Below, piece by piece: positions 9,607 through 60,144 of a stretch of DNA of 64,000 bases. Origin of the DNA: Desulfomonilia bacterium (GTDB lineage Bacteria; Desulfobacterota; Desulfomonilia; UBA1062); assembly GCA_050014195.1 (NCBI GenBank), contig JBEKDT010000010.1:96001-160000 (forward strand), given 5' to 3'. Both the position numbers and the translations under genes were made by a program. Each line of letters begins with the position of its first letter. Position 1 is the stretch's first letter. The notes beneath the pieces were generated by a model. That model saw nothing but the letters and a program-made list of their open reading frames with translations. It ran no database searches and was not told the origin of the DNA.

Positions 9607-11058
9607 CTACGTTTTGGATATCTTCTCCGCACCATAAAAATAACTATATCCTGACTTTATAGAAGCCAATGTTGGCCTCACTATTCTATATTCTAATAAC
9701 TCTTCTTTATTTTCAACTGTAGCCATTATACTAATAGTTTCATTAAGAGCTAATAGATCATCACTAAGAAATCCAATATCATTTTTTCCCTGATCAACTA
9801 TAAATATTCCATGATCTCCAATATTCAATCGTTTATTTACCTTTTCTCTTTTACTTCTTCTCTTATCAGACATAATATAAGAGAATTCTCTTTGATCTTC
9901 TACTCCAACAATATTAGTCAAATAAATATAGTTCTTAAGATTCTCTGGAGAGATTATATGATTATTTTCTAGTGATGAAATAACTTGATTTAATCTATCA
10001 CCTTCTTCGGTTAGAAATTGATCACGTATTGATTTTACTTGAGGGTTCTCAATATTGTTATGTATCAAGTCTATTAGCAAATTTGGCTGCATTTCAATTC
10101 TGCGGTAAAGTATACTGTTTAAATATTGTATCAATAACAATGCAGTAAGTATTTTTGCATCAAAATAGGGGATAGATATAGTTGATGCTAATTCATTGTT
10201 AAAAGTAAGAATATTAATAAATCTCTTAATGTCCCTAGGGTTATCTCCAAGTCCTTTTACTAATAAATCTCTGCAGTGTTTTAATTCTTCAGAAAGCATA
10301 GGATCTATGAAGATTTCCATAGATTGAGGTGCTATAGGTGGTATATTAAAAGGAAGTTGAACAATTTTATCAAGATATTGAGATTCACTTAGATCAATAT
10401 CTTTGTAATGATATTTGATGCTTTTTTCAAGTTCTGGGCGATCAACACCCAAAAAATATACACAGTTAGGTAAATTTAAATATAATTTCAACGATTCTAA
10501 TAGACTTAATATTTGTGGAGGCAAACAACGATCTAAGTCGTCAATAAAAAAAACTAACCTCTTTTTTGGTTCACCCTGAGCTTTATTTATGAGTTTTTCG
10601 AAATGTTTCCTCAACCGAACACGTGCTTCACGTACTTGGAAGCGTTCTTCTTCAAAACGTTTACCTAGATCATCTATATCTTGTGCACTCATAAGGGTGG
10701 TTGCCTTTAATAGAATAGAACTGAAAGCACTAGCAATTACTATAAGTAACTTTTTTTCCTCTTCATCCATGTTAAAAGTGTCAACTACAGTATGGAGTAA
10801 AGCAAGAACAGGATTTTCATCAAATTGATGTTGCCATGGATCAAACCAAACAGACTTAGTACTAGGTGAATTTAATTGCTGTTCGATGAGTTTCATAAGT
10901 GAAGTTTTACCAATTCCCCAACTCCCGTAAAGACCTATTACTATTGGAGTTTCACATTTTTCAGCCATACGTGCAAACGCCTTAGCATACTGGTTTCTAT
11001 TTAGATTATCAGTATTTGTTGCCTCATCATTTCGAATTATTGCTTCAAAAGATTTCAT
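9607..11058 (-). CDS. KAP-family P-loop NTPase with PilZ-like C-terminal domain
   Basis: 'DNLNRNQYA', Walker A 'GSWGIGKTS', 'WFDPWQH', Walker B 'LVFFIDDLDRC', 'YLDKIVQLPF', 'NPRDIKRFIN'. C-terminus 'DKRRSKR...VDQGKNDIGF...YGAE'. Confidence 0.88.
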   Translation of the reverse strand: MKSFEAIIRNDEATNTDNLNRNQYAKAFARMAEKCETPIVIGLYGSWGIGKTSLMKLIEQQLNSPSTKSVWFDPWQHQFDENPVLALLHTVVDTFNMDEEEKKLLIVIASAFSSILLKATTLMSAQDIDDLGKRFEEERFQVREARVRLRKHFEKLINKAQGEPKKRLVFFIDDLDRCLPPQILSLLESLKLYLNLPNCVYFLGVDRPELEKSIKYHYKDIDLSESQYLDKIVQLPFNIPPIAPQSMEIFIDPMLSEELKHCRDLLVKGLGDNPRDIKRFINILTFNNELASTISIPYFDAKILTALLLIQYLNSILYRRIEMQPNLLIDLIHNNIENPQVKSIRDQFLTEEGDRLNQVISSLENNHIISPENLKNYIYLTNIVGVEDQREFSYIMSDKRRSKREKVNKRLNIGDHGIFIVDQGKNDIGFLSDDLLALNETISIMATVENKEELLEYRIVRPTLASIKSGYSYFYGAEKISKT

Positions 11059-11323
11059 TTATTGAATCCCCTTTTCTCATTACATGGTAATTTATCAATT
11101 ATAACTAACCATTTATAATTCTCCTCGTAACATAAGAACCATCTCGATTTAATGTTTTCTCAGTCATCTTGATTGCATAGATTCAACAGTGGATCACCCG
11201 TCAGTTAGACCATCTTTTACGATCTTCTATCCTACACTATTTACAGAAGAACAATTGCATTATATCTAGATATCAGGTGCAAGGCAATATGCTATTATAA
11301 AACTTAGACAATAACTTTTGTGC

Positions 11324-11431
11324 GAGACTGTTGAAAAACCTCAAAAATCGGTTTTTATATTTTTTAACTGATTGATTTTTCATCACATAAAAATGTCGAA
11401 AACTTATGGTGGGGGCTTTTTCAACAGACTC
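11324..11431. mobile_element. MITE-like element with 15-bp terminal inverted repeats
   Basis: GAGACTGTTGAAAAA ... TTTTTCAACAGACTC (14/15 match), 108 bp, no transposase. Confidence 0.6.
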
Positions 11432-11598
11432 TGCCATTAGATACGTTTGGGATAAAAGTCGACTCATACAGAGGTTTATACCTAAGATCTCTAGTTAATT
11501 AAAAAAATATAGACGGAGGAATCGAACTCCCGTACTACATGACCTAGCCTAGTTTTACAGGCGCATTACACATCTTTTACACAATTAATTTAATATCA

Positions 11599-12909
11599 TT
11601 AATCTTTTATAATCTTATTTATAATAGGTTTTAATTTAATATCAGATAAAAGATGAACCCCTAATAGTCTTCTCTTGTTTACATTGTCAGTTGAATATTT
11701 ACTGTTTATAAGTTTGTTATAATCTATAATATATTCTCTTAAGAGCTTATCAATTTTATTATCAATATGTTCCAGTAATTGAGTATCATTACAAAAATAA
11801 TATTGGTTACCCCATCCGAATACAATATTATCTACCATACTTAGTGTCTCTGCGAATGACCTTTTATCCTTTAATTTACATTTTATGGGAGTTTTCATGG
11901 ATTCTAAGCTATTATTAAAATTATTTTTAACTTTCTCTATAAGTCTAAAGCATGACTTTCTATCAGGCCTAATTAATCCTTTTAAAACTTCACAGCCAAG
12001 AAATTTTAGACCATTAGCAGTATAACCAAAATCTGATTTAGCTTTATCACTTAAAGGATCATATGCTCTTAAATTTAGTTGTTTTAAAATCTCTTGTGCA
12101 CTCTTAAAAGCGGTAAATACCTTACTTCTTGATTTACCTAAAATTAAAAAATCATCTATGTACCTTAAACATCTTATTCCACGATCATTCATTCTTATGT
12201 CGAACTCGTTAAGAAGAATATTCCCTAAGAGGGGAGATAAACAACAACCTTGGGCTACTCCTATATCAAATATTGGGAATAGGTGCTTATATTTTCCAAG
12301 TATATTTAAATTTGACAATTCCACATCGGTAGCTTTTATAAGTAAGTCATTGAATATTGGATCATCAATTTCATCCTTAATTTTTGATAAAACTATTTCT
12401 CTTGGAATATTTCTGAAAAATTCTTGTATGTCAGAACGGATATAATATTGTGCTCCATTAAGAATTGTTTCATATGTGACTCTTATTGCTTCAGGAACTC
12501 CTTGATCTTCTATACCTCCGAAACTTGAATCATTAATAAAATATTTTTGTATGTTAGAGTCTTCTTGGAGGACATCTAGAATACTTCTTTGTACAATCCT
12601 ATTTTTTACTGAAGCCTTGACTATTGGTCTAAAATTTTGATTTGGTTTTGGTAATAATATTCCATCTGATTTATCGAACTTAAATATCTGATCACGGAGT
12701 TGGCGGGATATCCTAGAAATATGCCGTTCGGAATCATTACTGAAATTTTTTATAATATTTCTGGTTTTTTCTGATTTTGATTTTAAACCGCTCTCCAATA
12801 CTATCTTCCAGGCCTGTCGCAATCTAAGAATACTTCTAACTTTCTTGTTTGAGTTATTAATAATATCTCCTCTTTGCTGAGCCACGTTGGCAAACCCAAT
12901 CTCAGCCAT
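11599..12909 (-). CDS. Group II intron-like reverse transcriptase, G2L4-like (YIDD); real start possibly ATT at 12861
   Basis: RT motifs 'RPIV..SVKNRIVQRSILDVLQ', 'SSFGG', 'YIRSDIQEFF', 'GVAQGCCLSPLLGNI', 'LRYIDDFLILG', 'AYDP', 'FLGC'. Thumb 'FGWGNQYYFCN' and C-terminal 'RRLLGVHLL'. No endonuclease domain and no intron boundaries seen. Confidence 0.9.
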   Translation of the reverse strand: MAEIGFANVAQQRGDIINNSNKKVRSILRLRQAWKIVLESGLKSKSEKTRNIIKNFSNDSERHISRISRQLRDQIFKFDKSDGILLPKPNQNFRPIVKASVKNRIVQRSILDVLQEDSNIQKYFINDSSFGGIEDQGVPEAIRVTYETILNGAQYYIRSDIQEFFRNIPREIVLSKIKDEIDDPIFNDLLIKATDVELSNLNILGKYKHLFPIFDIGVAQGCCLSPLLGNILLNEFDIRMNDRGIRCLRYIDDFLILGKSRSKVFTAFKSAQEILKQLNLRAYDPLSDKAKSDFGYTANGLKFLGCEVLKGLIRPDRKSCFRLIEKVKNNFNNSLESMKTPIKCKLKDKRSFAETLSMVDNIVFGWGNQYYFCNDTQLLEHIDNKIDKLLREYIIDYNKLINSKYSTDNVNKRRLLGVHLLSDIKLKPIINKIIKD

Positions 12910-13040
12910 TTGAAGAGCATGTCATTCTGTGGGGGTTTCAGTGTCTGACCCGACCCAGCCGACAGTATTGTTGTCGGTGCATCTTTGAGCTTGAGCAGCG
13001 CCATAGGATGGCCCATTCAGTAAAGATGCCAGAATGAACG
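12876..13040 (-). ncRNA. Structured RT-associated leader RNA (multibranch core plus 3' hairpin)
   Basis: GC-richer than the flanks. Stems 13030-37/12922-29 (8 bp), 13022-29/12979-86 (8 bp), 13000-12 hairpin, 12959-77 hairpin, 12930-57 hairpin, and 12876-81/12901-06. Confidence 0.7.
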
Positions 13041-13042
13041 AT

Positions 13043-13096
13043 GGTACACATATAGTGCCCATAAGAACACTATATACTACATATAGTAAAAATCAA
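13043..13096 (-). promoter_or_regulatory. Sigma70-like promoter with tandem NrdR-like boxes
   Basis: Minus strand TTGATT-N16-TATAGT. Boxes ttACTATATGTAGTat (13074-13089) and gcACTATATGTgtacc (13043-13058) are 31 bp apart. Confidence 0.6.
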
Positions 13097-13223
13097 GTTA
13101 AATTATATCGAATAAATTTCATATAATAGAAGCCTAATTTAAATATGGGAAAAATAGACTAAGATTTCAGTGGAATATTAAAATACTAGCGAAGACAGGC
13201 AGGCACCGAAGTCAGAGTCAAGG

Positions 13224-13342
13224 CGGTCACTGGTAGGTTCCCTGGATCTCGATCAGGGCTAAGGCTTTCAGTCCCGGAACGGAGTTTCACGTAGTGCAGG
13301 GCCGAAGCCTCCCTAAGCGAGATAGCGGGGCCAGTGACAGCA
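13224..13342. other. Unassigned GC-rich structured element (multi-hairpin junction)
   Basis: GTCACTGG(13226-33)/CCAGTGAC(13331-38) encloses CCCTG/CAGGG and AGGCTT/AAGCCT hairpins. Confidence 0.45.
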
Positions 13343-13345
13343 TAG

Positions 13346-13628
13346 AAATCGGGGGACACCATACTAGTTTTGTTGTTTCCTGGGTCTGCCGCCCTTGAGA
13401 GAAGCCAACCTTTCAATTACTTATCTTCCAATAAAAACTAGTAATGAACCTGGGATTCAAACCAAATCTGGGGACACCATACTAGTTTTGTTATTTTCTA
13501 GGTCTACAGCACTTGAGGAGGGCTAACCTTTTCAATAACTTATTTCCCAATCTGACAATAATGCATCATTTTCCTATGGTCGTCCAGTAGGTTCATATCT
13601 AAAATAATAGTTTGGTATCTCCGGATTT
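13346..13628. repeat. Two ~87-bp direct repeats plus one short inverted partial copy (GGGGACACCATACTA core, REP/REPIN-like)
   Basis: 13346-13432 and 13464-13551 align throughout. 13601-13628 is a reverse-complement partial copy. Confidence 0.75.
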
Positions 13629-13777
13629 CCACGATCATTATTTTCTCCTGTTAACTGTAGAGTGGGACGAGAGCAACGAAATCCACCAAGGCATTATAAT
13701 ACATAGGGAAAAAATGAAGGCAGATCTCATCAAATGAAATGACAATGTGTGTAGAGTTCTTTGAAATCAGCAGAGTT

Positions 13778-14089
13778 CTAAATAACCTTCTTGTTGCGAC
13801 TCCCATCACGTTTACGGAAATGATGTTCCGCCCTGTCCAAGGGCGTCCAGATCAGTCACCTGGTATGGATTTGGTTCTCTTTTGAACGGAACAGGTTAGG
13901 AATCGCAGTGAGTTCGCATCCTGGATTTCCCATGAGTCCTCCGATGAGAAACGAAGCACCCAAAATTGCCAGAGCCCCCGTGCCTATAACTGTAAGGGTG
14001 TCCACACCGACAGCCCAGATCAGCACAAAGGTCCCAACCCCAAAAAGCACGCGTGATACTCGTCCGAACAACAACGGTTCAAGCTTCAT
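13778..14089 (-). CDS. Small membrane protein, candidate selenoprotein (UGA readthrough at 13856-13858)
   Basis: ...GNPGCELTAIPNL...HTR-UGA-LIWTPLDRAEHHFRK...VI*. Hairpin CGCCCT-TGGAC-AGGGCG starts 10 nt after the UGA. GGAG SD upstream. Confidence 0.65.
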
Positions 14090-14322
14090 CCTGTTCTCCT
14101 ACCCTTATATAAATGACCAGACTGTGACTTGTCCACCTAATGTGTCTAAAAACTTCATGAACCCGGGATTCATGTCATGAGGATAAGAAATATCAACACT
14201 GCCGCTACAAAGATAACAACCGGACTAAATATCTTTATCAGTATCCTGAGATCATCCATTTACAAAAGCCCCGCCCTTTCAGTTGTTCCGCTGGAGGTAT
14301 CCTGACAGATCCTTTTTTTATC

Positions 14323-15546
14323 TCATGCCTGCTGAAGATGCACAGGGACTTTGATATCATGGAGCAACAGCGCCAGGATGAAGGCGACCCCAAAGAGTAT
14401 GGTAATCGCGGTCATGTTGAAGAGGAACACGATGGGCAGACCGCTTATCTGGCCGCTCAGCATCAAAATCCCGTTTGAGGTAGCCTCCGGTACCGGATGG
14501 GTCTTTTCCACCGCATAGGTCAGCCCGACCGGCATGGCCGAGATGAGGAAGAAACCGAAGACAAAACCGCACAGGCCTAAAAGAACAATCGAGGAGAGAT
14601 ACTGCAGGAAAAGGGAAAGCGGCACCGCCATACCGGCCGCCATGATCAGGAAGATCCTCCTTTTGTGGTACTTGTCGGACAGTGCAGACAGGATTACCGC
14701 CCCGCACATGCCCCCGATCACGATCAGCCCGCCGACTATGCCCGGGGCGAGGGCCGAGTCGATGTCAAGCGGCCGGTTTTTGAATATGTAATCGATCTTG
14801 GTCAGGATGGCATTAAACGCGCCTACGCCAATGAAAAAGAGTCCCAAGAGGAAGAGAAAGTCGCGGTTTCTGAAAAGCGCTTTCAATCCGATGGTCATGG
14901 TGACCTTTTTCTCGGCTGCGATTGCGTTGGGCGGCAGCTTTGGTTTGTCCTTCACCAATACGAGATACAGGATCATGCCGATCAGGGCGGGGATGCCGTA
15001 CAGATACAGGACGGCATCGATCCCCTGCCTGATCGCGCCGATATTCCGGTAATGCGCGAGGATAAAATCGGTGGCGAACATGACGATCGTGAAGCCGATG
15101 AACAGGGACATGGTCAACAATCCCGATGCCAGGGCCTCTTCATTTTCCGGGAACCAGTTCGATGCCAGTTTGGTAAAGGCATTGAGCACGAACGGTTGAG
15201 CGATGGCACATCCGATCATGCAGGCGAGGAGCCAGCCGTAACTTGGTGCGAAGATACGGAGAAAGCCGCACAGGCCCACCAGGACAACGCCGATCCCTGC
15301 CCCCTTCTTCAGCCCGATGTTGTCGATGCACCAGGCGGCGGGGAGGCAGAAGGGGATCCAAGCGAGCATGGCCAGTATGGCAAGCAAATCAATGGCGTCG
15401 ATATTTCCGTGGGTATAGACGGCAGCAGCATCCCTGGCAATAGGAGCGAAGGTCATCCACATGATCTGGGACATGGCTATGTTCAGCATGAAAACTCCCA
15501 ATACGACCCAGCGGTAAGGGGATACGGATGAATGGATATTTTGCAT
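14323..15546 (-). CDS. MFS transporter
   Basis: Many TM segments, 'YRWVVLG', 'LASNWFPENE', 'LSDKYHKRR'. Confidence 0.9.
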   Translation of the reverse strand: MQNIHSSVSPYRWVVLGVFMLNIAMSQIMWMTFAPIARDAAAVYTHGNIDAIDLLAILAMLAWIPFCLPAAWCIDNIGLKKGAGIGVVLVGLCGFLRIFAPSYGWLLACMIGCAIAQPFVLNAFTKLASNWFPENEEALASGLLTMSLFIGFTIVMFATDFILAHYRNIGAIRQGIDAVLYLYGIPALIGMILYLVLVKDKPKLPPNAIAAEKKVTMTIGLKALFRNRDFLFLLGLFFIGVGAFNAILTKIDYIFKNRPLDIDSALAPGIVGGLIVIGGMCGAVILSALSDKYHKRRIFLIMAAGMAVPLSLFLQYLSSIVLLGLCGFVFGFFLISAMPVGLTYAVEKTHPVPEATSNGILMLSGQISGLPIVFLFNMTAITILFGVAFILALLLHDIKVPVHLQQA

Positions 15547-36159: not shown

Positions 36160-36221
36160 ATGGACACCTCCATGGAATATTCCCTTGGAGTCTCCACCCG
36201 GGCACGCGGATGTAGTCCGAA

Positions 36222-36365
36222 CTGCGGATAGGTCTTCTGGCTCACGGATCAGTTGGGCGGCCTTGCCTTCCCGCATATGCAGTGGCATGTAGCGGCCTGC
36301 CCTCCCCGTTCACAGCGGCGGCCCCACCCCGGAATTTCACCGGGTTCCCTTGAATCCGCAGCAGG
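36222..36365 (-). promoter_or_regulatory. Cobalamin riboswitch
   Basis: Minus strand AAGGGAACCCGGTGAAATTCCGG...GCCGCTGTGA...GCCACTG...GGGAAGG...GAGCCAGAAGACC. Confidence 0.93.
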
Positions 36366-36447
36366 GTAATGATTTGATATCAGATGGGGGATTGGCTGTC
36401 AATGCACCTATGATATACTCTAAGAGAGCCTTTAGGCGCGATATATC

Positions 36448-56279: not shown

Positions 56280-56969
56280 TTATCTCGTAATGCACTTTCC
56301 TACGAATGAACCGACTTCGGTGGCAAGAGCTGCCATCTCATCATTTGAAAATGAGGATTTCCTTGCGTATGCCCTGTCAAGATGTTTCGAAGAGACAAAT
56401 TTCTGGAGCACATACCGCTTAGAGCCTTTAATCATCTTTGCAATTTTTAAAACATCCCCCGAACCCAGCAATGAATTTACCAGGGTGGTACGGAACTCAT
56501 AGGCAATGTCTGATTCTATGATCATTGCTATGCTTTTCTTTATATGCGTTATGTTTACGAGTGATCCCGCAACGTGAGAATATTTATCCCAAGGCGCCTT
56601 GATGTCCATTGCTAAATAATCCAGGAGGTTTTTATCAAGTGCCTCCTGAATAACCTTGGGCCTGGAGCCGTTGGTGTCAAGCTTTACCAGGTATCCCATG
56701 GATTTTACCCTATGCATGAACCCTATGAGGCCTGATTGTAATGTTGGTTCACCGCCGGTTATGACAACGGCATCGAGCTTTCCTCTTCGCTTTTCCAGAT
56801 AAGAGTACACATCTTCCATGAGGATAATATTGCAATATCGATCCGGATCAACGAGCTCAGGGTTGTGGCAGTAAGGACATCGGAAATTACACCCTTGCAT
56901 GAAAACTACCGCACTGATCTTCCCTGGATAATCTATAAACGATGTCTTCTGGACGTAACCGATCTTCAT
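56280..56969 (-). CDS. nrdG: Anaerobic ribonucleotide reductase activating radical-SAM protein
   Basis: 'SFIDYPG', 'GCNFRCPYCHNP', 'GGEPT', 'KLDTNG'. Confidence 0.9.
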   Translation of the reverse strand: MKIGYVQKTSFIDYPGKISAVVFMQGCNFRCPYCHNPELVDPDRYCNIILMEDVYSYLEKRRGKLDAVVITGGEPTLQSGLIGFMHRVKSMGYLVKLDTNGSRPKVIQEALDKNLLDYLAMDIKAPWDKYSHVAGSLVNITHIKKSIAMIIESDIAYEFRTTLVNSLLGSGDVLKIAKMIKGSKRYVLQKFVSSKHLDRAYARKSSFSNDEMAALATEVGSFVGKCITR

Positions 56970-57704: not shown

Positions 57705-59918
57705 TTATACCTGACGTAAGCTCTCCCCCTTGCTTCCTGTCGAAGGCGGTATAATGTCGGCAGTGCCCGGTGATTGAGCCGCCTTTACTTTATTGACCCG
57801 GCTCAAAACGAGCTCTTCGGGGTGAACAGCCTTCTCGACACGGAAGGACTTTCTCTGGATGAATTCCTCCTTCTTGCCGTTATTCCACTGGGCTACAGGT
57901 CTCAGGTAGCCCACAACGCGCGAATAAACCTCTGTGGTCTCACCACAGTCAGGACATTGCGGATGGTTGCCTGTGAGGTATCCATGGCCGGGGCATACAC
58001 TGAATGTGGGGCTGAATGTGAAGTAGGGGATTTTGTATCCGAGGCAGATCTTTTTGACGAGATGCTTGATCACCTCATGGTCATCCACACGCTCACCGGC
58101 ATAGAGGTGCAAGACGGTTCCGCCGGTATACTTGGTCTGGATCTCATCCTGGAGATCCAGTGCTTCGAATATGTCATCCGTATAGTTCACCGGGAGCTGG
58201 GAAGAGTTCGTATAGTAAGGCTCATGGCCTGCCCTGTATGCATCTTCATTGGCACAGATGATGTCAGAGTAAGCCTTCTTGTCGATCCGCGCCATCCGGT
58301 ATGACGTCCCTTCGGCAGGTGTGGCCTCGAAATTGTAATTATTGCCGGTCTTTTCCTGGAGAAGAAGCAGTTTGTGCCTTATGAAATCCGAAACCCTCAA
58401 CGCAAAGGTGCGCCCCTGATCGGTGCCGATGTCCTTACCGAAAAGGTTTATACAGGCCTCATTCATACCCAAAATGCCTATTGTTGAAAAATGATTCTTC
58501 CAGTACTCACCGAACTTTTTTTTCATCCCCGTTAAATAATACTTTGTATATGGGTAGAGGTTGCTCTCCGTAAAGCTCTCCAGGACCTTGCGCTTGATCT
58601 CCAGGCTCGTGCTGCCAATGTCTATGAGCGCCTCAAGCCTGCTCATGAACTCAGTCTCGCTCGTGCTCAAGTAGCCGAGCCTGGGCAGGTTGATGGTCAC
58701 CACGCCGATGGAGCCGGTGAGCGGGTTGGATCCGAATAAGCCGCCTCCCCTTTTCACCAGCTCCCTGTTGTCGATCCTAAGCCTGCAGCACATGCTCCTG
58801 GCATCGCCAGGGTCCATGTCCGAGTTGATAAAATTGGAGAAATAGGGAACCCCGTATTTCGCAGTCATCTCCCACAGACCGGTCAGGTTTGTGTTGTCCC
58901 AGTCGAAATTGGATGTGATGTTATAGGTGGGTATGGGGAACGTGAACACCCTTCCCTTTGCATCACCTGCGGCCATAACCTCTACGAAGGCCCTGTTGAA
59001 CATGTCCATCTCTTGTTGAAACTCACTGTAGGTAGCCTCCTGGGTCTTTCCTCCGATGACCACACCCTGGTCTTTATAGTGTGCCGGCACATCGAGATCC
59101 AGAGTAACATTGGTGAACGGTGTCTGGAAACCTACCCTGGTGGGCACATTGATATTGAATATGAATTCCTGCAGGGCCTGTTTCACCTGGAGATAATCGA
59201 GGCTGTCATAGCGTATGAAGGGAGCCAGCAGGGTGTCAAAGTTGGAGAAGGCCTGCGCGCCGGCTGCTTCACCCTGGAGGGTGTAGAAGAAATTCACGAT
59301 CTGCCCGAGAGCGGTGCGAAAATGCTTGGCCGGCTTGCTCTCAACCTTGCCGGCTGCGCCTTTGAACCCCTGGAGAAGAAGATCGTAGAGGTCCCAGCCC
59401 ACGCAATAGACCGAGATTATATTAAGGTCGTGTATGTGAAAGTCGCCGCCTGAATGTGCATTCCTCACCTCCGGCGGATAGATCTTATTGAGCCAGTAGA
59501 GCTTGCTGATCTCGGATGAGAGGTAGTTGTTGAGGCCCTGGAGAGAGAAGGCCATGTTGCTGTTTTCATTTACCTGCCAGTCGAGCTTATCCAGGTACTG
59601 GTCTATGAGATCGACCCCCATGCCCGCCTTTATCTCGCGTATTTTGGCATGCTGATCCCGGTAGATGATATATGCCTTGGCCGTTTTCCTGTGCATAGAC
59701 TGGAGGAGCACCTCCTCCACGATGTCCTGGATTGCCTCCACTGTGGGTATGTCTTTCACGGTCTGTTCAGAAATGGAGAGGACCTTGATCATCAGTTTAT
59801 GGGCCATGCCCTCATCGAATTCTTCGGTGGCCCTGCCTGCCTTGGCAATGGCCGATGTTATCTTGGAAGCATCAAAAGAAACTATCCTGCCGTCTCTTTT
59901 CCTGATGGTGGTGAACAT
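57705..59918 (-). CDS. nrdD: Class III anaerobic ribonucleoside-triphosphate reductase with ATP cone
   Basis: ATP cone 'IRKRDGR', 'SMCCRL', 'EATPAEG', CxxH/CxxC, glycyl-radical loop 'YSRVVGYLRP'. Confidence 0.96.
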   Translation of the reverse strand: MFTTIRKRDGRIVSFDASKITSAIAKAGRATEEFDEGMAHKLMIKVLSISEQTVKDIPTVEAIQDIVEEVLLQSMHRKTAKAYIIYRDQHAKIREIKAGMGVDLIDQYLDKLDWQVNENSNMAFSLQGLNNYLSSEISKLYWLNKIYPPEVRNAHSGGDFHIHDLNIISVYCVGWDLYDLLLQGFKGAAGKVESKPAKHFRTALGQIVNFFYTLQGEAAGAQAFSNFDTLLAPFIRYDSLDYLQVKQALQEFIFNINVPTRVGFQTPFTNVTLDLDVPAHYKDQGVVIGGKTQEATYSEFQQEMDMFNRAFVEVMAAGDAKGRVFTFPIPTYNITSNFDWDNTNLTGLWEMTAKYGVPYFSNFINSDMDPGDARSMCCRLRIDNRELVKRGGGLFGSNPLTGSIGVVTINLPRLGYLSTSETEFMSRLEALIDIGSTSLEIKRKVLESFTESNLYPYTKYYLTGMKKKFGEYWKNHFSTIGILGMNEACINLFGKDIGTDQGRTFALRVSDFIRHKLLLLQEKTGNNYNFEATPAEGTSYRMARIDKKAYSDIICANEDAYRAGHEPYYTNSSQLPVNYTDDIFEALDLQDEIQTKYTGGTVLHLYAGERVDDHEVIKHLVKKICLGYKIPYFTFSPTFSVCPGHGYLTGNHPQCPDCGETTEVYSRVVGYLRPVAQWNNGKKEEFIQRKSFRVEKAVHPEELVLSRVNKVKAAQSPGTADIIPPSTGSKGESLRQV

Positions 59919-60064: not shown

Positions 60065-60111
60065 ATACTATATGTAGTGTACGATGATTATCGTCATACT
60101 ATATATAGATA
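60065..60111 (-). promoter_or_regulatory. Tandem NrdR boxes
   Basis: ATACTATATGTAGTGT (60065-80) and ATACTATATATAGATA (60096-111) are 31 bp apart, upstream of nrdD. Confidence 0.88.
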
Positions 60112-60144
60112 TTAAATGGTGATTGCAAGGAGAAAAATACAAAT

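Follow-up and report, generated by a model that had tools for sequence, protein, structure and literature searches.

A G2L4-type reverse transcriptase gene with a probable tandem NrdR operator at its promoter

The gene of a G2L4-type reverse transcriptase (RT) in the 64,000-nucleotide stretch of Desulfomonilia DNA analysed here (the window) has a predicted promoter that carries a pair of NrdR-like boxes, and judging from the sequence this pair is probably a real NrdR operator, which would give a known regulator a new target. NrdR, a repressor with a zinc ribbon and an ATP-cone, changes its oligomeric state and its binding to DNA according to ATP and dATP. It binds paired boxes placed an integer number of helical turns apart in ribonucleotide reductase (RNR) promoters, and is regarded as a dedicated RNR regulator; tandem NrdR boxes at RNR operons were reportedly described by Rodionov and Gelfand in 2005. 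We think it likely that the RT promoter is a genuine tandem operator of this kind, at which dATP-loaded host NrdR would repress, and that the RT would be co-induced with nrdDG. The first-pass annotation had read the promoter in the same way, and the reading is supported by the PWM rank of the stronger box, by boxes in homologous promoters, by a peak of box spacing at 31 bp and by the presence of nrdR in the genome.

The RT is encoded by a 436-aa ORF on the minus strand (11599..12909; RVT_1, E 6.4e-21). Its start is uncertain: the first ATG of the ORF is at 12909, and the alignment with P0002, the closest database homolog (66% identity), suggests a GTG at 12885; the database copy of the RT protein is 399 aa long, 37 residues shorter. 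The best PDB matches are 9d5x and 9d4s, 'Group II intron-like 4 reverse transcriptase' (E 7.5e-71, residues 22-425), and ordinary group II intron RTs match at E 7e-16 or worse. The translation contains RYIDDF, that is, a YIDD active site in place of YADD, and in the homolog alignment Y250, D252 and D253 are invariant and I251 is found in at least 90% of the rows. YIDD is the defining G2L4 motif according to a published abstract, and together with the structural matches it upholds the G2L4 label that the gene had been given. An Rfam search of 11000-14400 returned no family at E ≤ 5, there is no intron RNA around the RT, and the RT is free-standing. It was absent from the 14 other genomes of the same genus and the 22 others of the same family that were searched, and within the window's class it occurs in one of 122 genomes, namely the window's own. 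Since no relative was found in these other genus, family or class genomes, we take the RT to be horizontally acquired.

The RT ORF starts about 135-180 nt downstream of the boxes. On the minus strand, a promoter scan predicts TTGATT-16-TATAGT, with 9/12 matches to consensus, where the -35-like hexamer TTGATT lies at 13091..13096 and the -10-like hexamer TATAGT at 13069..13074. Box A (ttACTATATGTAGTat, 13074..13089, minus strand) scores 20.9 bits with a PWM built from the nrdD operators of relatives, fills the 16-nt spacer between the two hexamers, where it had been placed from the letters alone, and abuts the -10. Box B (gcACTATATGTgtacc, 13043..13058, minus strand) follows 10 nt after TATAGT and scores 2.9 bits; its left half-site is intact and its right half degenerate. 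The weaker second box noted earlier is thus where it was said to be, with a start-to-start distance from box A of 31 bp, equal to the spacing of the nrdD pair. Among all offsets of 14-48 bp on both sides, box B is the best-scoring partner of box A. In the AT-rich fraction of the genome (≤36% GC), 0.0013 of all positions score at least 2.9 bits, and the chance of finding a site of the quality of box B at ±31-32 bp from box A is about 0.005. The promoter call alone is not significant, because 12700-14400 contains five promoter-like sites against 2.9 ± 1.7 in shuffles, which is no enrichment. From the usual 6-8 nt distance to the -10, transcription would start near 13060-13063, and box B would occupy about +4 to +20. 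The geometry is that of a repressor, since box A lies between -35 and -10 and box B just downstream.

The window also holds nrdD, a class III ribonucleotide reductase gene (57705..59918, minus strand; NF006126, 1082 bits), with nrdG behind it (56280-56969; TIGR02495, 223.6 bits). The operator of nrdD consists of a promoter-proximal box (60065..60080, minus strand; 22.7 bits, rank 1 in the genome) and, 31 bp away, a second box (60096..60111, minus strand; 15.3 bits) that overlaps the -10 region behind a conserved TTGCAA (60123-60128). The nrdD promoters of the same family have the TTGCAA -35 and two boxes in common, and the proximal box is conserved in relatives. A spacing of 31 or 32 bp is kept in 19 of the 21 nrdD loci of relatives that were examined (16 pairs at 31 bp, three at 32 bp). 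The PWM was symmetrised and built from 32 distinct 18-mers, representing 38 sites at 19 nrdD loci of other genomes of the family, and the window's own genome was left out of the training set. When 4,215,087 genome positions were scanned with it, only two reached 18 bits, the nrdD proximal box (22.7 bits) and RT box A (20.9 bits). Ranks three to five are held by a site inside a small ORF (16.6 bits), a site at C6:95179 (15.4 bits) and the second nrdD box (15.3 bits). The first-pass annotation had named a PWM score no better than AT-rich background as grounds for giving up its reading; box A is instead the second-best site in the genome, below nrdD only. A genome-wide scan for pairs, with one site of at least 10 bits and a partner of at least 3 bits 29-34 bp away, yields only nrdD and C6:95179, and the RT pair with its 2.9-bit partner falls just below the cut-off. 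The regulator is encoded in the same genome (nrdR, G000:C19:49102-49542; TIGR00244, 187.8 bits against a cut-off of 124.65). The second RNR of the host, class II-like (Ribonuc_red_lgC, 645-aa frame, G000:C13:139597-141009), has no obvious NrdR box upstream.

The 12-mer ACTATATGTAGT, which is the core of both box A and the first nrdD box, is present in exactly two copies in the 4,215,580-bp genome (50% GC), so the identity pointed out earlier is exact at both places. We discount it as evidence, because a 171-nt query of the RT promoter has about 50 other exact 12-14-nt matches elsewhere in the genome. Such short matches bear on a first rival explanation, namely that the resemblance is due to chance and that an AT-rich promoter with TATA-like words mimics a NrdR box that has no regulatory meaning. 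The region is 31% GC, exact 12-13-mers in common with the rest of the genome are frequent, box B reaches only 2.9 bits, and in E. coli, according to the part of the source available, random sequences gave as many single-box matches as real ones (10.1101/2025.03.28.645925). Against this, box A outranks all of 4.2 Mb except the nrdD operator, it has a partner at exactly 31 bp, and boxes are present in seven other G2L4 promoters with the same spacing peak and far above dinucleotide shuffles. We therefore regard chance as an improbable explanation.

The homologous promoters come from family-wide searches that gave 60 RT loci from species-representative genomes and 80 from metagenomes. Of the 124 that were left once 16 partial, distant or self-identical loci had been dropped, 102 had 300 nt or more upstream, and 88 of them were non-redundant. 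These were scanned with a generic NrdR consensus (core ≥10/12 and full ≥12/16), which gave 12 matches in 43,603 upstream bases, 11 of the 12 between -250 and -150. Within -270..-130 of the inferred start, 11 matches fall in eight of the 88 loci (the window, L011, L017, L038, L120, L128, L177 and L182). In the remainder of the scanned loci there were 23 matches in 400,045 nt, or 0.057/kb, which is 15-fold lower than the 0.89/kb of the zone, and 300 dinucleotide shuffles of the zone gave a mean of 0.51 matches (SD 0.71, maximum 3) against the 11 observed; because both the thresholds and the limits of the zone were set with the first matches already in view, these enrichment figures are somewhat optimistic. 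The proposal that homologous promoters should carry boxes is thus borne out for eight of 88, seven of them besides the window, and 80 of the 88 have no box at the threshold used, among them the nearest available homologs, L112 and L113 (59% identity). Among the isolates of the species-representative set no box-bearing G2L4 locus was found.

The spacing of 31 bp, on the other hand, was specified beforehand by the original observation. When a strong box was combined with any partner, the spacings peaked at exactly 31 bp, in six loci (L011, the window, L120, L177, L178 and L182), and every other spacing from 16 to 55 bp was found in 0-2 loci each; the spacing expected from the window thus recurs in the homologs. 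The best partner is found at ±31 bp in L110, L011, L120, L114, L177 and L182. Two further loci have two good boxes at about four helical turns, 42 bp apart in L017 and 41 bp in L038. In the window, L017, L114, L120 and L128 a TTGAC-like -35 immediately precedes the box, and in the other loci the box lies a little upstream of such a -35; the -35 positions were read by eye, with a check of the hexamers by rule in the window and L017 only.

The boxes of the window overlap an inverted repeat (ATATAGTG / CACTATAT, 13050..13075, minus strand), and a second rival explanation is that this repeat is the functional element, either as an RNA hairpin in a transcript that starts further upstream or as the operator of another dimeric regulator. 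The fold of 13036-13080 on the minus strand is rather stable (-14.9 kcal/mol, z -3.65, with none of 200 shuffles as good), and upstream of the box A promoter there is a second promoter-like site, TTCCCA-17-TATTAT (13151-13123). The 5' arm, however, overlaps the predicted -10, so the hairpin would not be transcribed from the predicted promoter, and the arms are themselves NrdR half-site-like words. No comparable hairpin was seen by eye in the other box-bearing loci, whose common feature is the box pair, and the RT cassette contains no regulator gene. A hairpin or another regulator in place of NrdR is for these reasons unlikely.

The third rival accepts that the boxes bind NrdR, and holds that they are a copied fragment of an RNR promoter, or a site that acts elsewhere, with little effect on the RT. 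It draws on the multi-copy repeats that flank the RT cassette, and on L017, a locus in a Nitrospinota MAG, where the RT promoter sequence TTGACATACACAAGATATTGTGGT equals the host RNR promoter at 23 of 24 bases (-35 and box) and could be a copied piece; in that host the RT operator and the RNR operator both have boxes 42 bp apart. In the window only the box matches nrdD. A local alignment of the RT and nrdD promoters has only the 13-16-nt box in common, with dissimilar flanks, and the RT promoter segment is single-copy in the genome, for which reasons promoter capture from nrdD was rejected here. An RNR promoter fragment that was copied and stays idle is conceivable for L017, but not for the window. 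Furthermore, at least five loci (the window, L017, L114, L120 and L128) have their boxes on the core promoter, judging from hexamers that were read by eye except in the window and L017, and no plausible plus-strand gene adjoins those of the window. We give this explanation little probability.

The reading as a tandem NrdR operator can be set beside what the hosts use at their own RNR genes. NrdR was found in all three box-bearing hosts that were checked (L011, 219.9 bits; L017, 202.6 bits; L038, 217.5 bits), and all three have NrdR-like boxes near RNR genes. Box A of the window is of the flavour of its own host family, TACTATAT..TAGTA (TAC-TATAT..TAG-TA), and the gammaproteobacterial and Nitrospinota loci have boxes of the CACAA..TTGTG flavour. 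As box A matches the local operator type and the RT has no relative in 121 other genomes of the class, we argue that the box was selected in the present host or a similar one. In a quick ML tree of 79 RTs, seven of the eight boxed loci are placed in one clade of 32 rows (SH-aLRT 97), and L177 in a clade far from it. Boxed rows are never sisters of each other, and eight changes are required by parsimony. By eye, L011 and L182 have a common promoter sequence, and L114 and L120, perhaps also L128, a common box type. As these look like cases of shared ancestry, the independent origins of the boxes would be fewer than eight, perhaps four to seven.

Between the boxes and the RT lies a conserved leader (12915..13042, minus strand), which by alignment is a single copy, in the LDR2 position, of the G2L4 'long direct repeat'. 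It follows directly on box B, aligns with the repeat that is present twice in class A loci, and has a fold z of -2.1. The ncRNA of the RT-ncRNA unit is, judged from this alignment, one copy of the already described G2L4 long direct repeat, and it is not a catalogued RNA, since the Rfam search of this region gave no match. A repeat search found no second copy in the window locus. Most loci have the repeat twice, with a conserved spacer between the copies, an arrangement described for Pseudomonas G2L4, where two upstream LDRs and a spacer are present in about 70% of cases according to the part of the preprint available (bioRxiv 10.1101/2022.03.14.484287). The spacer motif CATGCAAAAACGTGCC (≤3 mismatches) is found in 50 of the 88 loci and missing in 38, so the two-repeat module is frequent and not obligatory. 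All eight boxed loci are among the 38 without the motif and none among the 50 with it (one-sided Fisher p ~8e-4, hand calculation). The nearest homolog locus, L112, is of the two-repeat design and has no box (59% identity of the proteins); its similarity to the window starts at ~13044, directly after box B, and from this we infer that the promoter with NrdR boxes replaces the LDR1-spacer module; the boxes probably also replace the regulatory input of that module. The G2L4 loci would then be of two exclusive designs, one with a repeat-spacer module and a leader ORF, and one with its own promoter, often with NrdR boxes.

The spacer of the class A loci L008-L171, at about -300 to -150 relative to the RT start, contains a conserved TTGACA-type promoter, a GGAGG and a short ORF, all of which are absent from the window. 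The motif GCAAAAACGTGCC (≤1 mismatch) is found in 51 loci, 39 of which have an in-frame ATG; most of the 12 without one have an in-frame GTG or TTG that can be read by eye in the flanks. In all 51 the spacer ORF encodes M-x(n)-[C/S]-K-N-[V/M]-P, after which the tail is not conserved, and the wobble bases of K-N-V-P are invariant as well. On these grounds the ORF is a candidate leader peptide or regulatory uORF, and no mention of it was found in those parts of the G2L4 literature that were examined.

If the box pair is a NrdR operator, it could work as follows. The dATP-loaded host NrdR, with its zinc ribbon and ATP-cone, would bind both boxes as an oligomer, and by covering the spacer and -10 at box A and about +4 to +20 at box B it would block initiation by RNA polymerase. 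When dATP falls relative to ATP, NrdR would leave the RT promoter, and a shortage of dNTPs or replication stress would then induce the RT along with nrdDG. The meaning that we favour is that a microhomology end-joining polymerase would be brought into use alongside dNTP synthesis. In P. aeruginosa, the G2L4 RT mends double-strand breaks through microhomology-mediated end joining, according to the portions available of two sources (10.1101/2022.03.14.484287; PMC12337344); such repair is known for the P. aeruginosa enzyme only. The RT of the window resembles it in being a free-standing, group II intron-like enzyme with YIDD, a full-length match to the G2L4 structures and a conserved upstream repeat, and differs in having one copy of the repeat instead of two, no spacer module, and the NrdR-box promoter instead. 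The coupling of a repair polymerase to a signal for dNTP synthesis would be biologically coherent. By analogy, a parallel is the SOS (LexA) control of repair polymerases, in which a stress-sensing host repressor likewise acts on the promoter of an error-prone repair polymerase, although the NrdR sensor at the RT would read dATP/ATP and not RecA filaments.

LexA-box-like words are present in two of the 88 G2L4 promoter zones, L181 (-175) and L045 (-218), in the forms CTGT-N8-ACAG and, in an alphaproteobacterial MAG, GTTC-N7-GTTC. As each LexA motif matches one locus in -400..0, SOS control as a general input of G2L4 genes was rejected; from these words, some G2L4 genes may be under SOS control instead.

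Compared with the NrdR operators of RNR operons, the RT site has much in common: box A is a 16-bp AT-centred palindrome, the two boxes are an integer number of helical turns apart (31 bp), they would overlap the core promoter as predicted from consensus hexamers, nrdR is in the genome, and the flavour is identical to that of the host nrdD operator. It differs in that the gene under its control would be a reverse transcriptase and not an RNR, and in that the second box is much weaker than that of nrdD, 2.9 against 15.3 bits. In E. coli and P. aeruginosa only the RNR operons are said both to carry paired boxes and to respond when nrdR is inactivated, and most other predicted NrdR boxes are suspected to be false positives, as far as the available text of 10.1101/2025.03.28.645925 goes. 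The same text judges the single predicted boxes at topA in Pseudomonas and dnaA in Shewanella to be probably false or mechanistically different. Like those genes, the RT is a non-RNR gene of DNA metabolism with a NrdR-like site, but where they have single boxes the RT has a pair at the canonical spacing, and G2L4 promoters of several lineages show this design again. The first-pass annotation knew of no NrdR-regulated RT, and in agreement with this our literature search found no published link between NrdR and an RT in the titles and abstracts listed, even if the supplementary site lists of Rodionov and Gelfand 2005 might still name one; no mention of NrdR or ribonucleotide reductase was found in the G2L4 research papers that were searched.

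A more general proposal is that with the G2L4 RTs bona fide tandem NrdR operators are met for the first time outside RNR genes, and that the operator has been recruited repeatedly, at least in Gammaproteobacteria, Nitrospinota and the lineage of the window, on loss of the native LDR1-spacer module with its promoter and conserved C-K-N-V-P leader ORF. We put this forward tentatively, as a possibility that we are somewhat inclined to doubt. NrdR and its box are near-universal in bacteria, and if the proposal is true the box pair would therefore serve a mobile repair gene as a portable switch that senses dNTPs. The end-joining synthesis of G2L4 RTs would then be deployed specifically when dATP is low, for instance under replication stress, in non-growing cells or when phages attack the nucleotide pools. 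A second class of targets with canonical paired boxes across phyla would extend the NrdR regulon to a DNA-repair polymerase. The operator would also give a first clue to when G2L4 RTs are expressed, and it suggests how mobile genes plug into conserved host sensors.

A 68-nt direct repeat with copies that are 82% identical is found at 13346-13413 and 13464-13531, and further short repeat stretches lie near the cassette at 11230-11440 and 13760-14099. The 68-nt repeat and the short stretches flank the cassette and have many copies in the genome of the host and in genomes of the same genus, for which reason they look like REP/MITE-type elements that bracket the insertion. Synteny with relatives gave no date for the insertion, since the contig of the closest relative stops next to the AraC gene. 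A GC-rich imperfect palindrome of about 165 nt (13186-13350) lies between the RT promoter and the 68-nt repeats. Its fold z is -1.9 for the plus and -2.65 for the minus strand, and it has no Rfam match and no sequence similarity to the repeat element of the RT.

A KAP-family P-loop NTPase gene (9607-11058, minus strand; PF07693, E 3e-41; QatA/PifA-like in PADLOC) lies 540 nt downstream of the RT. It was considered as a conserved partner of the RT and rejected, since tblastn found none beside other RT loci, only the three copies of the window locus. As it stands beside no other RT locus, it is probably an independent insertion, and possibly a defence gene.

Two observations concern other sites. 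The pair at C6:95179, outside the window (G000:C6:95148-95196, locus L098 2149-2197), consists of the 15.4-bit site and a 5.5-bit partner at 31 bp, and lies in AT-rich intergenic DNA, with a TsaB-like gene upstream of it and, about 300 bp downstream, a 181-aa ORF without a Pfam family. Within the window, a cobalamin riboswitch is present at 36210-36374.
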